The notes beneath the pieces were generated by a model. It was given only the letters and a program-made list of their open reading frames with translations, ran no database searches and was not told the origin of the DNA. From NCBI GenBank assembly GCA_964234715.1, contig OZ174279.1: a DNA stretch of 64,000 nucleotides; one strand, written 5' to 3'. Below are positions 35,601 through 57,271 of this stretch, one piece after another (positions within the stretch are counted from its first letter, which is position 1; every line of letters begins with the position of its first letter). The translations under genes were made by a program, and so were the position numbers. The DNA is from Podarcis melisellensis. Taxonomy: Eukaryota.

Positions 35601-37498
35601 TGTGGGGGGGGGGGTGTACTTTGCACATGCTCAGGGGCACCCTCGTCTGCTTTTGAGGGTTCCAGAAAACACAGGTTGTGGGACTGAGTTAACACCCCTC
35701 TGGTGCTGGGCCATGCGGCCGGAGTCAAGTCTCTGCTGTGCTTGTGTTGTATAGTGATTTTGTTTCCATTCTTTAATGTTTTAGGGATGCTCAGCTGGGG
35801 CGCTGGAGGTTATATGCTCTACCTGTTCTATTTGTTGTTTATTATTATTATTATTGATTGATTGACTTTATATACCACTCTGTACCCCAGGGTCTCTGGG
35901 TGGTTCATAGAATAAGATCAAGATATAAAACCACAAAATACATGATAAAAATAAAAATAACAACCCACTAGCCCCCCCCAAAAAAACACATTTTAAAAGA
36001 GCACAGGATGTTGAAGTATTGCTGTTGAATGTGGTCTGTGTGAAGTGGGAGGGAACAAGCACTCCCTTTTTTTGCTATGGGGTCGCAACCAATAACCTTT
36101 GAATTGCCCCAGAATTATCATCAAGAGATACGCTGTGCCAGGAGTGCCAACGTGGCCCCACGATTGGGGGATGCCCAGGCCATGGGTGCTGTGCAGCATG
36201 CATGGCCCTGGCACCAGAATTTCTGGGAACCCGGCCCCTTCATGGGGAAATTTGTGGGTGCTCGGGCACCCAGGGCCTCAGGGACTTGGGACCTATACAC
36301 TGTGCAAATATTAGTGCTGTACATTTTGTTACGCCCCCTTCTGGAATGAAAATTGACACTTCCACGTTGTTTCTTCCTTAGATGGAATTCACTAAAGTTT
36401 TGGTGCTTTTTTAAAATGGCAATCTGGAGATGGATCTCTGAGATCTTTGTATTGTTGACTTTAAATGAGAGAGAGTTCTTTTGCTGGTGGGGAAATGTAG
36501 TCTATGACGGCAGATACTATAGATGGGAAAATGTATTGATTGTGCACTGGCAGGGGGTGTGCATTCAGTTACTGCCCTGTGTGTTTCTTTAACCAGCTTT
36601 GGCTTAATTGCTGGAACCAGGAAAAAAACAATATTGGGAGGGCTCATAAAGAGCAGCAAGCATGATGCGTGAATATGTGTCGTTCTAAATACATGGGTCC
36701 AACAATGGGGGTTGGGGGTGTGAACTGGTTATCTGGGAGCAGGAGGACAACCCCTCTGGGTCCCAGCATTGGCTCCTCTGCTTTTAAGGGCAGTGTGGTT
36801 TGCAGAGATTTAGCAAGCAGAGCTTTCCCAGCATAGAAAGCATATGGTGGGAGAGAGCATATCTGCTTAATCTGGGTGCAAGCACAGAGCTGGTAAAAAT
36901 GTTGGCAACCCTACATGCAGTTTGCTCTTGAATACACTGCATGCACACACACTCGTTGCTCCAAAAGGTGCAATACTGCAAGATTTTGCAGTTTGTGTTG
37001 TGCTCACTAGAGAACTGCAGGAGAAAAGTCAAACACGTTTTCTTTAGGAAAATTGCACCTTTGAAATGTTAAATTATAGGAAAGAGTTGTTGCTGAATGC
37101 AACAGGCAACTTTCCAAAAGATACCTGTATTAGTAACCAATGAATTTTTAGGTCAAATCTTACAGCTGTTTTGTGCCTAATAGGCTGAATCTACACAGAT
37201 ATTTTTTTAAAAATGCTGTGAAAATGCCTTTTCAAAAAAAACATAAAGTATATATGGGATTTGCCATTAGCTTATCAGCACCATCTAGTGTCACATTTGT
37301 ATAATGCATTTAAAACACACTTAAAATGTTGTATTTGCAGCTGTATAACTGAGTACATAATAAAGACGCCCAAACGGTACTTTAACAGATAGTTAAGGAG
37401 GCATCTTGGAAGTGAAAGCCATATATAAAAGTGGAAAAGGGGCTACCATTACAACAAAATTATATGCATATTTACTCAGCTTTCACTGGTGGAACATA

Positions 37499-39357
37499 CA
37501 GTGGTACCTTGGGTTACATACTCTTCAGGCTACAGACTCAGCTAACCCAGAAATCGTACTTCGGGTTAAGAACTTTACTTCAGCGCGGGGACCCTCAAAA
37601 ACCATGGGCGCTGAAACCCATGGACATGGTGACTCGGCTGGCACCTTTTGCGCCCCCCCGACCCGCGAAGGAGCCTTTTTAAAGGCTGCGGAACAGGTGA
37701 CGGGGGGGGTGCTTTGAGTCCTCCGCTTCCCCTGCCGAGCGAAGCCGCTTGCCATTCGATGGAGAGCGCTGACTTCTTCCATTGAAAATCTGGACTTAAA
37801 AGAATAACCCGTGAGTAATTGGAACCTGGATTAAAAAGGGAGAAAAATAATTTTTTTTTAAAATTCGGAGCGAGCGGGGGGAGGTGCAAAAAAGGAAGTC
37901 AACCTCCCCCCTGTTGTAGAGGAGCTAAAGCAAAGGATTTGACAACTAAGATCGAGCGCAACCTTATTTTGATAAAGTTACTAAATTCCGCGATGGAAAA
38001 TTATAAGACTGGGCTGGAGGAGAAAAGTGGAATCTGAACTGAAATGAACCCCCCCCCCCCGAAACCCCGGGAGCGATCTGTGAGAGTGCCGGGAGAGGAG
38101 AAAGGTTTTGACAGCTGTCAAAGGAGATGTCAAGTGGAAGAGTAAAAGAGAACTTTGTTACGAGGACTTTGCTGGTTACATTTGTTATAAATTGGATATA
38201 AATTGTTTAAAATAAGGAACAATAAGTTACTTTGACTGTTGGGTGTGATCTGGAAGGAAACAGAGTTACTATAATCCCTCTAGAGGAGCTGTGGGACATT
38301 ACAAGTATTGTTGGCATGGAATTGGAAAAGGACTTTTTATCTCCTGGGAGACTGCAGAAATGGAACACTATTTTGTCTACAGAGGTCTACACACTAAAGG
38401 AGACAATAGATTTATCTATTGAAGAATGGAAGGGACTTGACGTAATGTTTTGTACATGAATAACAAAGCCTCTGCAGAGGAATTAGAAGCTTTTGGAATT
38501 AGAACATTTGTGCAGTAGAGCAGGGGGGGGGGAAGGAAGAGAGAGATCAACAAGAATAACAAGAACAACAAGAATTGGACATTTGGGACATTCAGATCTG
38601 AAAGGTCTAAAGAAATAAAAAATGGAGTTTTTACTCTTAAATACAAAGATCTGGATGGAAAAAATGGACATTTTTGAATTAGACTCCTTCCAAGATTGGA
38701 CATTTGATACTAAAGATGATTAAAAAGACGTCAAAGATTATTAAAAAGACGGCAAAGTGGATTGGTGAAGAACTATGGTTTAGATCTGGGAGCTCCAGGA
38801 GGACGGCAGACATTGATGGACATTGGGAACGCAACCGGGAAAGGGGGGGAGGGAAATTTGGAATCCAAAGGGTGTTAAATTATATTTTATTCTTTTTCTA
38901 TCTTTTTTTGATTCTAATCTGTACTGTATATTAAAGAGGGGAACTCGTGGAAGGGACTAAGTCGATTTTAGGGGATGGGAAAAAATCTTGTCTTTAAATT
39001 GGGTTAATGATAATAAGTTTAAAATTTGGGGTAAGAACTTGTTGAATCTATGTGAAAGAAGTGGAATACAAGAGGGGGAGGGGAGGGGAAGTCCTGGAAA
39101 GATGTTCATGAAATTAAGGTTTTGATTGTGGATGCTTTTTTTTTCCTTTTCTTTTTCTGTTGTATTTGAAAATCTTTAATAAATATTATTTTTTAAAAAA
39201 AAGAACTTTACTTCAGGATGAGAACAGAAATCGTGCTCCGGCGGTGCGGCGGCAGCGGGAGGCCCCATTAGCTAAAGGGGTGCTTCAGGTTAAGAACAGT
39301 TTCAGGTTAAGTACGGACCCCCAGAACGAATTAAGTACTTAACCCGAGGTACCACTG
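37499..39357 (+). mobile_element. Tc1/mariner MITE family A, split by a 1.6-kb insertion
   Basis: Left part 37499-37583 and right part 39201-39357 rejoin into one complete MITE with a TA TSD. Confidence 0.9.
37584..39200 (+). mobile_element. Non-autonomous non-LTR retroelement, probably L1-mobilised
   Basis: 16-bp TSD AAGAACTTTACTTCAG at 37568-37583 and 39201-39216. TT/AAGA target site, CpG-rich 5' end, AATAAA at 39178-39183 followed by an A-rich tail. No RT-like ORF. Confidence 0.8.
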
Positions 39358-39812
39358 TATTCAAAATCCTGTAATAAGTCAAGATTGAAGCAATATCATG
39401 CTCCCCCTGCCACAATTATCATTTTTTCATATTTTTTAAAAATGTTACTTTTAATACGTATATTCTACACATTTTTTTATTTCCAGGAAAGATATTATTT
39501 TTAAGAGGATGGTGGCAATTAGTATTCCACTGGGGATTAGAGAGGCCAGATGCAAAGAAAGACAGGACTCTCCATGCCACCTTTAATAGCAGAATTCCAG
39601 CAGATGCAGCTTAATGCTCAGAGGTGAGAAGAGCTGTGCTACCAAAATTTCTCCTCTCTATACAACTACTAAAGGTACAGGAGTCTTCTTCTTTTGCATT
39701 TGGGCATCCTAGTGAGGATTGTGGTGCTTATGTGGTTTCTAGATTAACCTGACAGCAGCTTGCAAAAAGTAACTTTTTTATTTTCCAATGCTTCCATTAT
39801 AACTTTGCTGGA

Positions 39813-40088
39813 NNNNNNNNNNNNNNNNNNNNNNNNNNNNNNNNNNNNNNNNNNNNNNNNNNNNNNNNNNNNNNNNNNNNNNNNNNNNNNNNNNNNNNNN
39901 NNNNNNNNNNNNNNNNNNNNNNNNNNNNNNNNNNNNNNNNNNNNNNNNNNNNNNNNNNNNNNNNNNNNNNNNNNNNNNNNNNNNNNNNNNNNNNNNNNNN
40001 NNNNNNNNNNNNNNNNNNNNNNNNNNNNNNNNNNNNNNNNNNNNNNNNNNNNNNNNNNNNNNNNNNNNNNNNNNNNNNNNNNNNNNNN
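39813..40088. other. Assembly gap (N run)
   Basis: Ns; falls where the Bov-B 3' tail is expected. Confidence 1.
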
Positions 40089-40515
40089 ACTCTTCGTGAC
40101 CCCATGGACCAGAGCATGCCAGGCACTCCTGTCTTCCATTGCCTCCCACAGTTTGGTCAAACTCATGTTTGTAGTTTCAAGAAAACTGTCCAACCATCTC
40201 GTCCTCTGTCGTCCCCTTCTCCTTGTGCCCTCCATCTTTCCCAACATCAGGGTCTTTTCCAGGGAGTCTTCTCTTCTTATGAGGTGGCCAAAGTATTGGA
40301 GCCTCAGCTTCAGGATCTGTCCTTCCAGTGAGCACTCAGGGCTGATTTCCTTCAGAATGAATTGGTTTGATCTTCTTCAAAAGCATCAATTCTTCGACGA
40401 TCAGCCTTCTTTATGGTCCAGCTCTCACTTCCATACATCACTACTGGGAAAACCATAGCTTGAACTATACGGACCTTTGTTGGCAAGGTGATGTCTCCTC
40501 TTTTTAAGATGCTGT
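40089..40515 (-). mobile_element. Bov-B (RTE) LINE 3' fragment running into an assembly gap
   Basis: Reverse complement of the same Bov-B ORF tail (MLGKMEGTRRRGRQRTRWLD). Confidence 0.9.
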
Positions 40516-55507: not shown

Positions 55508-57271
55508 ATGGAAACAAACAGCCACCAACTCCACCCCCATCAGGAAACCTTGAACTCTGTTTGCCACAGCACTCTCAACCTGAACTATCACCCTCTCTCA
55601 AAGAGCTCCACAAATCTGGCCGGCGTTGGGCGAGTGGGTTCTGAGGAGGGACACAACAGCAGGCAGGAGCTGCGAAAGAGCCTCAGCAGCTCTGCCTGCC
55701 AAGCCCAGGCGAGGGAGAACGACCTGGGAAGCACACCTAGCTCTGCATGGTCTTCAACCCGCTCGGAAATTGCATCCACTCTCCGAACTGTGAGCAGCCT
55801 GTCTCCAAGCGACAGTGTGCAGAGCACCACCAAAAGCACAAACCACTTCCTGGGTGTGGAGCAACCCCCAGCTTCTGCGGGAGGGGTTGGCCCTAGGACA
55901 CACACCAAGAGCAGTACCGCTGAGGATGTGTCCGCAACCTGTGATGCAAATCCGCAGCAGTTGAGCACGATGGAAGCACTGGGTGCTGCTGTCCAGAGAA
56001 GCCTTTCTGACCTAACGTGCAGCTGTAAGCAGCAGAGCTCCACTCCCCACATGGAGACAAGTGCCACATACTCTGCTATGCGCTCCAGCAGCAGTTACGG
56101 GGCTGCGGCAGGCAGCGTAGCATTCCCAAGACCGAGATATGGATCAGACACGTGTGAAAATGCCCCCAGTTTCCAAAGTCACATGAGTCGGGCCCCAAGT
56201 TTGCCTCGAGACCAAGATGTGCCCACTAGTGTCTTTGACAATGGTGCTGTATCGCAAAACGTTTTTGCGGACCCTGGAGCGTATCACTCAGCTGTTCTTG
56301 GGCCGCATATGCCTGGAGACCACTTCTCAAACAGGGCTATGTACGCCCAGGGTGGAATTGTGTATAGCAACTTTGCAGCTGGCATGTACCCACCTGGCAT
56401 GGTGGCCATCCATAATAGTACTGCTCTTCCTTACGGTATGAGGCCGGAGTCTTCGATGAAGATGGAGGGCACTGTCCCGGCCTATTGCCATTCCTTGCCC
56501 ATCCCTTCCCTTCAGTTCATCCCAAGGTTGGTCTGCTCAGTTAGTGAATCGGGGAAAGGACAAGTGACCCCCGGGTACTGCCAGTCCTTGCCCGCTGCTG
56601 AAACGGCAACGCTTCCAAAGCTCGTGTCGTCCGTGAGTGAGTCGGGTCTGGATGCAAAGCGCATCCTGCGCTGCTGCAGTGTGCGTGGGGAGCACATGAT
56701 GCACATGCAGCCTTGCATGCAACCAAGCAGGGCCCAAGAGGAAATGAAGACGACGTACGTGGTGTTGAATAGCCGCCAGGACGGCGTCAACACTGTCCTG
56801 AAGACCAAGGACACAGGGACGATGACCTCCATGAATGACCTCACCCGGGGATTGCAGCCCCTTCTTGAGTGCAGAGATGTAGAGGTACAAACCATCCCAA
56901 CGAAGGAATGTAAATCTGCAGCAACGAGCCCCTCGGTCGCAGCAGAAGGCCACCCTCACGTGTTCCCAGAGGTTAATCTGGAGCCCGAGGCAGAGGGTGA
57001 GAAGTCTCCGGTGAGGGAGGTGAGGTGGGACGATGAAGGCATGACATGGGAAGTGTATGGTGCGGCTGTAGACCCCGAGGTCCTTGGCTTGGCCATCCAG
57101 AAGCACCTTGAAATTCAGATAGAACAGTTTCAGACTGAACCGGAAGAGATCTCTAGGAAAAGTACTGAGGAGCTGCCGGCTAAACAGGAAAAGAAAACCT
57201 CTTTCAGAACAATGATGCATTGCCTAAGAAATCCAGGCTGCTGTGCCCGTTCCAGCACAGCAGTGGAATAA
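55508..57271 (+). CDS. GPRIN2: G protein-regulated inducer of neurite outgrowth 2, single coding exon, 587 aa
   Basis: GRIN C-terminal domain SPVREVRWDDEGMTWEVYGAAVDPEVLGLAIQKHLEIQIEQ, plus PKLVSSVSESGL, HVFPEV and a C-terminal CC. Strong Kozak GCCATGG. Acceptor (polyY + TAG at 55491-55493) just upstream. Neighbourhood with SYT15 and SHLD2 fits recalled synteny. Confidence 0.95.
   Translation: METNSHQLHPHQETLNSVCHSTLNLNYHPLSKSSTNLAGVGRVGSEEGHNSRQELRKSLSSSACQAQARENDLGSTPSSAWSSTRSEIASTLRTVSSLSPSDSVQSTTKSTNHFLGVEQPPASAGGVGPRTHTKSSTAEDVSATCDANPQQLSTMEALGAAVQRSLSDLTCSCKQQSSTPHMETSATYSAMRSSSSYGAAAGSVAFPRPRYGSDTCENAPSFQSHMSRAPSLPRDQDVPTSVFDNGAVSQNVFADPGAYHSAVLGPHMPGDHFSNRAMYAQGGIVYSNFAAGMYPPGMVAIHNSTALPYGMRPESSMKMEGTVPAYCHSLPIPSLQFIPRLVCSVSESGKGQVTPGYCQSLPAAETATLPKLVSSVSESGLDAKRILRCCSVRGEHMMHMQPCMQPSRAQEEMKTTYVVLNSRQDGVNTVLKTKDTGTMTSMNDLTRGLQPLLECRDVEVQTIPTKECKSAATSPSVAAEGHPHVFPEVNLEPEAEGEKSPVREVRWDDEGMTWEVYGAAVDPEVLGLAIQKHLEIQIEQFQTEPEEISRKSTEELPAKQEKKTSFRTMMHCLRNPGCCARSSTAVE

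Follow-up and report, generated by a model that had tools for sequence, protein, structure and literature searches.

The insert at positions 37584..39200 (+) of the 64,000-nucleotide stretch of Podarcis melisellensis DNA analysed here (the window) is most probably a 5'-truncated copy of an abundant non-coding retroelement of about 1.7 kb which, to judge from its sequence, would descend from L1 by way of a half-L1 (HAL1-like) stage and be copied by L1 proteins acting in trans. Alignment to copies fetched from the genome places the insert at element nucleotides ~95-1710 of a non-autonomous family whose ORF is dead, the closest of the copies examined being L003 (97.8% identical).

The insert interrupts a TA-flanked MITE of 231 bp with terminal inverted repeats, the left part of which lies at 37499..37583 (+) and the right part, followed by TA, at 39217..39357 (+); from its TA flanks and CAGT ends, we take this MITE to be of the Tc1/mariner type. 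The sequence AAGAACTTTACTTCAG, an exact 16-nt direct repeat with TT just before it, stands on both sides of the insert as the 5' (37568..37583, +) and 3' (39201..39216, +) copies of a target-site duplication, so that the split of the MITE by 1617 bp and the cut site TT/AAGA, both reported in the initial annotation, were confirmed. When the insert and one duplication are taken out, the resulting 231-nt empty site aligns without a gap to an intact MITE copy (214/231 identical). The MITE pattern GTTAAGAACTTT.CTT gave 18 hits in the window and the fetched loci, of which 17 have G at the variable position and only the insertion site itself has A, as expected of a private variant. Given the gapless alignment of the empty site to an intact MITE and an A variant confined to this one of the 18 hits, the MITE predates the insertion, as had been proposed. 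Three independent copies, namely L132, L058 and the window copy (37568), have landed at AAGAAC in members of this MITE family, and the duplication of L132 is nearly the same as that of the window copy.

A search of the source genome with the insert, suggested in the initial annotation, returned 35 other near-full-length matches with 88-98% identity among the 40 scored of 2092 candidates, and an exact 31-nt head pattern was found 509 times in the genome (0 for the reversed control). Forty heads were fetched in list order, those already in hand being skipped; 39 of them proved to be elements of 1.63-2.0 kb, each with its own duplication, and the 40th (L065) was a short element with a full L1 nested inside. 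The 69 copies assembled in this way fall into nine clusters that are 65-87% alike, with nearest-neighbour identity reaching 99.7%. An exact duplication of at least 13 nt flanks 58 of 68 copies, 56 of these duplications measuring 14-21 nt (mode 18), and the cut sites of the 68 copies show a preference for a pyrimidine at -1 (n = 50), A at +2 (n = 41) and A at +4 (n = 45). Both the duplication lengths and the target preference match those of L1a, an intact L1 family of the same genome, for which 16-21-nt duplications were found at 12 of 20 loci (7 others lacked a duplication or a recognisable 5' end, and the remaining hit was spurious). When the ORF1 and ORF2 of L1a were compared by tblastn with the 69 copies, nothing was found, no ORF2 hit being better than E 4. 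The view of the insert as a member of a multi-copy family without RT, bearing L1-type insertion marks, is thus borne out by the 509 heads, the individual duplications and the lack of an ORF2 match.

A target duplication and an A tail are common to processed pseudogenes of host mRNAs and to ordinary 5'-truncated L1s, and the insert could in principle be either of these; the probability of this is negligible, as the copies are dispersed by the hundreds and have one common start, no ORF2 remnant was detected by tblastn, and the homology to L1 is at the 5' end, which is not what a 3' fragment of an ordinary L1 would show. The family shares with HAL1 an L1 5'UTR, the lack of ORF2 and multiple copies with independent L1-type duplications and an A tail, and it shares with bipartite non-autonomous LINEs the retention of the parent LINE's 5' end with nothing encoded. 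The head of a SINE comes from a small RNA; that of the present element is an L1 5'UTR. In three ORF-dead copies of ~2.0 kb (L045, L048 and L061), the region of the ORF remnant is duplicated internally. Sequences of organisms A, B and C cover the family with an identity of at least 90%.

All other fetched copies (29/29) continue 5' of the window copy with shared sequence, and in 28 of the 29 a common start is reached ~92-94 nt upstream, at GACTTCCGG, the remaining copy (L017) stopping at -42. The initial annotation, according to which the insert keeps a promoter-like 5' end, had to be corrected on this point, since ~94 nt are absent from its start. The head of the element, missing from the window copy, contains what we presume to be ETS- and YY1-like words. 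The 5' part that is present, at 37584..38306 (+), is an L1-derived 5'UTR (nhmmer E 4e-90 to L1b, a broken L1 at locus L086, and 7e-46 to L1a), with a homology to autonomous L1 5'UTRs that is strong over element nucleotides 2-447 (to about window position 37935) and weak further on. The first 500 nt of the insert have a CpG observed/expected ratio of 0.84 vs 0.33 in the remainder, in agreement with the CpG-rich 5' part of about 500 bp noted earlier. The motifs GTGAGT at 37811 and AATAAA at 39178, listed there, are likewise present, as is the peptide text, at 38226-38459. The GTGAGT motif (37811..37816, +) occurs in 68/69 ORF-dead copies, 20/23 ORF-bearing copies and 3/3 L1s checked; as it is inherited from the L1 5'UTR, this donor-like motif is not specific to the window locus. 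Downstream lies a decayed ORF, probably derived from ORF1p (38307..38800, +), with ATT at the ancestral start and with frameshifts, stops and deletions common to the subfamily. What had been called broken ORF-like text is a true ORF remnant, matching the ORF of related subfamilies, and the insert is collinear with the ORF-bearing elements (E 1.5e-171 and 5e-63). The 3'UTR (38801..39200, +) consists of a G-rich and then a T-rich tract, AATAAA (39178-39183) and a short A tail; of the 3' end described initially the AATAAA stands, and the A tail is only ~6 nt long. The final ~30 nt of this region resemble the 3' end of L1a, and comparison of the 3'UTR with L1 by nhmmer gave E values of 3.5e-4 and 0.45, these ~30 nt being the only part clearly shared with L1a.

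The assignment of the host gene to the GPRIN family was upheld by a match of its single coding exon (55508..57271, +) to PF15235 (E 1.8e-30). The insert is in sense orientation to this exon and lies ~2.4 kb downstream of the putative donor of the first exon (35200/35201), exon 1 being predicted from the sequence. No RNA record with this sequence was found, a result uninformative as to expression. A look for empty-site orthologues over window positions 36600-39709, another of the checks proposed, yielded one contig of another organism (organism C) that joins 37499 to 39357 with ~40 letters between, and owing to this joint we consider it an orthologous site with neither the MITE nor the insert. 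Joints that skip the insert with short sides correspond to other MITE copies and were not used as empty sites. The sense orientation, the donor-like motif and the AATAAA would fit a recruitment of the window copy by the GPRIN gene, either for an alternative first exon or for polyadenylation; we deem this very unlikely, given that the first ~94 nt are absent from this copy, that the motifs are family-wide, and that the contig just mentioned spans the site with neither element. The window copy is probably an inert intronic passenger. Next to a masked stretch, a frame at window positions 39744-40376 (-) reads like what we assume to be the C-terminal end of an RTE/Bov-B-type LINE.

Autonomous L1s of the same genome were also characterized. 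L1a (loci L065 and L091-L110) possesses endonuclease (EN) and RT domains, and its ORF1 gave 113 scored matches at 95-100%, which suggests that the L1 family of L065 is very young. At L065 (G000:C2:7398214-7405314), a full-length L1 of 6.18 kb is nested at +710 in a short element, with its own duplication and with ORF1 (361 aa) and ORF2 (1246 aa) both open. This locus was considered as the autonomous parent of the family and rejected, as it is a short element plus a nested L1 with an unrelated head. Among 60 sampled heads (40 + 20), no L1 with the family's own 5' end was found. As no sampled L1 shares this 5' end, the driver L1 can only be proposed indirectly, and L1a is plausibly the driver of the family and not its parent. 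Pfam PF02994 had no match in the genome, a result that is uninformative here. The lizard L1s and the family are alike in that their first ~450 nt are homologous, with the same predicted fold and the same donor-like motif, and in that their duplication lengths are the same and their last ~30 nt similar. In contrast to the family, the L1s are 6.2 kb long and have an ORF1 of 361-368 aa and an ORF2 (1246 aa in L1a), and the 5' ends of the two are at best ~70% alike.

A variant head led to a subfamily of ~1.9 kb with a 212-codon ORF, the protein of which matches at least 151 loci (46-100%), most of them without stops. The fetched ORF-bearing elements with definable ends (of 40) are composed of a 5'UTR of ~780-870 nt, an ORF of ~200-225 codons, a 3'UTR of 430-670 nt and a duplication. 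Most ORF-bearing loci were picked by protein search, and such sampling for open frames inflates the lack of stops; of 97 heads matching a pattern taken from ORF-bearing copies, the first 24 were inspected, and a frame of at least 180 codons was present in 18 of these (14/20 of those not protein-picked). In a representative protein library, 13 proteins match the ORF, 10 of which come from Logan assemblies. Protein hits bear Podarcis labels, as would be the case for a lacertid host. The C-terminal ~55 residues of P0030, a predicted Podarcis protein from a cluster labelled Env-like, correspond to the family ORF, probably through an annotation running into a neighbouring insertion. Three shorter elements flanked by target-site duplications, L154, L157 and L089 (1327, 1139 and 1441 nt, respectively), are derivatives of ORF-bearing subfamilies with large internal deletions; splicing was rejected as their origin, since the breaks are not at the donor motif.

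The comparison of the ORF with L1 ORF1p that the initial annotation had called for resulted in a full-length collinear profile match. A model of lizard L1 ORF1p (15 sequences) comprises a coiled coil, an RRM and a CTD, and has the human ORF1p trimer as its top match (E 3.9e-7). The profile alignment of the ORF with lizard L1 ORF1p gave P 70%, which rose to P 95.4% (E 1.7e-8, 196 columns) once the members were more diverse; the latter alignment extends from the start of the coil to the first half of the RRM and, after a gap of ~44 residues, into the CTD. In a control with shuffled columns, the maximum was 20.6 vs a true score of 41. On this basis, descent of the ORF from L1 ORF1p is very likely. 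According to another reading, the family would be a bipartite L1 derivative composed of a 5'UTR and a 3' end, its middle having been captured or formed de novo and its ORF resembling ORF1p only by coiled-coil composition. Several results are in keeping with this: the homology past the coiled coil is weak by itself (score of 26 for the post-coil part alone vs shuffle maxima of 18-20, P just 14-15%), the DNA-level comparison of the family with L1 ORF1 yielded nothing better than E 0.002, and support was lacking from Pfam (no significant match for the ORF), from Atlas (no hit) and from the fold, as the AlphaFold model of the ORF was of low confidence (pLDDT 47.6) and had no RRM. A word-based search for homologues of one ORF was likewise without a hit. 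We nevertheless regard a captured middle as improbable, because the collinear profile match covers the full length and grew stronger with added diversity, its score lies above the shuffle maximum, and the ORF occupies the position of ORF1, directly after the 5'UTR. The homology to ORF1p surfaced only through the ORF-bearing subfamilies, a direct tblastn with the 69 dead copies being empty. P0031 was tried as a bridging protein and discarded, its alignment to ORF1p being confined to 59 coiled-coil columns (P 26%). Since related subfamilies keep an ORF, with an incomplete RRM, whose profile aligns with that of L1 ORF1p, the lineage is, by these sequence comparisons, HAL1-like.

Maximum likelihood (ML) estimates of dN/dS for the ORF are 0.64-0.65, with a lnL 22.8 better than for a dN/dS of 1; a Nei-Gojobori ratio of 0.48 was set aside in favour of the ML values, as that method ignores transition bias. 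By region, the two ends have a dN/dS of 0.51 and 0.41, a value of 1 being rejected for both, and the middle has 0.91 and 0.78, residues 46-150 being near 1. On the internal branches of the ORF-bearing subfamilies it is 0.67 vs 1.27 and 1.22 in the other frames, and codon positions one and two are equally variable. Judged by these ratios, selection on the ORF is weak. The ORF of the older subfamilies may have been open for the sake of translation itself (ribosome association or RNA stability), the protein being non-functional and the loss of the ORF changing little. This possibility, to which we give limited credence, is compatible with the origin proposed above; the deletion, in the alignment, of half the RRM together with a portion of the CTD and the near-neutral residues 46-150 speak for it, and the low ratios at the two ends of the ORF, each rejecting 1, speak against it.

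One tree was built from the first 460 nt of L1a, L1b and at most four copies of each cluster, the window copy not being among them. Here the ORF-bearing subfamilies form a ladder, and the ORF-dead subfamilies are nested in it as a single clade (99/96) whose tips are the shortest. A tree of the remainder of the element, with the window copy and no outgroup, again separates all dead copies (100/100). As the sister group of the dead clade differs between the two trees, recombination in the family is suggested. In the window's subfamily, Ile at the ancestral start and a stop within 50 codons are found in 28 of 30 copies, the other two having no motif match. The internal branches of the dead clade have a dN/dS of 0.97, with 16 stops vs 13 expected (tips, 0.70 and noisy), and 3 of the 69 dead copies keep a frame of 134-156 codons of the 3' half, devoid of the N-terminus. 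Read from the shared loss of the ATG and the shared stops, together with a dN/dS of ~1, the ORF of the window's clade is lost once, in presumed master elements. The dead clade also holds the youngest copies (shortest tips, identity of up to 99.7%), and exact heads of the dead type number 509 vs 97 and ~15 for the ORF types, counts that show recency more than total number since exact patterns favour young copies. Heads of the ORF type are concentrated towards contig ends, 32 of the 47 on C1-C10 lying no more than 10 Mb from an end (9.5 expected), and also on C19; ORF-dead heads on C1 show no such clustering (5/37 vs ~5 expected). The initial proposal of an L1-dependent, HAL1-like family therefore stands in that the family has no RT, is multi-copy and is related to HAL1; as ORF1p is no longer encoded by the window copy and its clade, this clade is not HAL1 if the term is taken strictly.

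The 5' end of the element has a predicted RNA fold of ~290 nt that is shared with the autonomous L1s. One of its helices is the conserved CCATGGG/CCCATGG hairpin (37602..37623, +); this small stem, already pointed out in the initial annotation, has 97% of its cells paired in a set of 34 heads, three of them from L1s, and compensatory changes were observed in 6 of its 8 pairs. For the fold of the first ~290 nt as a whole, 24 of 51 pairs, hand-selected from the 70 predicted by RNAalifold, have compensatory changes vs 13.4 in shuffles (95.7% paired), including 8/11 pairs of a long-range helix; these figures are not probabilities, since one alignment served both to derive the structure and to score it, and its sequences share ancestry. 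Folded one at a time, heads give this architecture as well (z -6.1 for L003 and -3.4 for L1a), and neither the insert nor the full head matched Rfam at E values of up to 1. The 94 nt missing from the window copy take away one arm of the outer helices of the predicted fold. Of the cis signals that the element may have retained apart from the promoter, the covarying 5' fold is the likeliest, and it may be related to recruitment, translation or the promoter.

In the course of events that we envisage, an L1 would have lost ORF2 and kept a shrinking ORF1p, and the ORF would then have been lost entirely in one branch. Transcription of full-length masters by Pol II would start at the internal L1 promoter, AATAAA would direct polyadenylation, and the ORF2p of an active L1, probably together with its ORF1p, would nick YY/A-rich sites and reverse-transcribe the element RNA; ORF1p, if needed by the ORF-dead elements, would also be supplied in trans. 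At the window site, reverse transcription would have halted ~94 nt short, inside the older MITE. We further offer, as a speculative extension, that the full series from L1, through half-L1s whose ORF1p shrinks, to a non-coding 'long SINE' transcribed by Pol II might be preserved in one lizard genome, and that the non-coding end might have overtaken its coding ancestors because the ~290-nt structured head shared with L1 suffices for the recruitment of L1 proteins in trans.

HAL1 (half-L1) elements of mammals were reportedly described by Bao and Jurka in 2010. In the available portions of the literature they are given as ORF1-only derivatives of L1 (PMC5753468, PMC4859970, PMC13756887). A literature search to which Repbase, Dfam and most subscription journals were external yielded no paper on lizards that describes a family of non-autonomous L1s, HAL1-like or other; the consulted part of PMC5203782 contained nothing on the subject. 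The consulted parts of two sources have HAL1 needing its own ORF1p and name non-L1 clades only as the origin of ORF-less bipartite LINEs (PMC3627910, PMC5786205). Because coding and non-coding sisters coexist here with intact L1s, both the need for ORF1p in cis and the role of the structured head can be addressed with natural variants. In addition, the covarying fold suggests that the 5'UTRs of lizard L1s contain an RNA element unmatched in Rfam, and the hundreds of young insertions of fixed length should be useful as markers; automated annotation probably mislabels them as L1 fragments.

As far as the accessible text of the cited papers goes, the lizard lineage resembles mammalian HAL1 in being L1-derived and without ORF2, in being made of a 5'UTR, one ORF1-derived ORF and a 3' tail, in its L1-type duplications, and in the retention of coding capacity over long divergence by its ORF-bearing subfamilies; it differs in its host and in the lizard ORF, which has ~210 aa and lacks half of the RRM. 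For guinea-pig HAL1, the excerpts at hand conclude that ORF1p is required in cis (PMC3627910), whereas the window's clade would have amplified with no ORF. RIME, NARTc, Bov-A and the Vingi derivatives, as presented in part of a review that gives RTE, Ingi, Vingi and R2 only as sources of ORF-absent bipartite LINEs (PMC5786205), are similarly non-coding, with a LINE 5' end and a 3' tail, and are presumed to be Pol II transcripts moved in trans; unlike them, the lizard family is derived from L1, is 1.7 kb long and would have arisen by ORF decay and not by one clean deletion. The ORF1-only reporter ORF1mneoI, an RNA of L1 5'UTR and ORF1 moved by ORF2p in trans, is comparable in this respect, but according to the part of the report available it needs a functional ORF1p (PMC11260458), and the window's clade encodes none. 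By the sequence comparisons made here, the ORF-bearing subfamilies have the properties of HAL1 that were examined, and the window's clade, which has lost the coding one, is best described as working like a non-coding parasite of L1.
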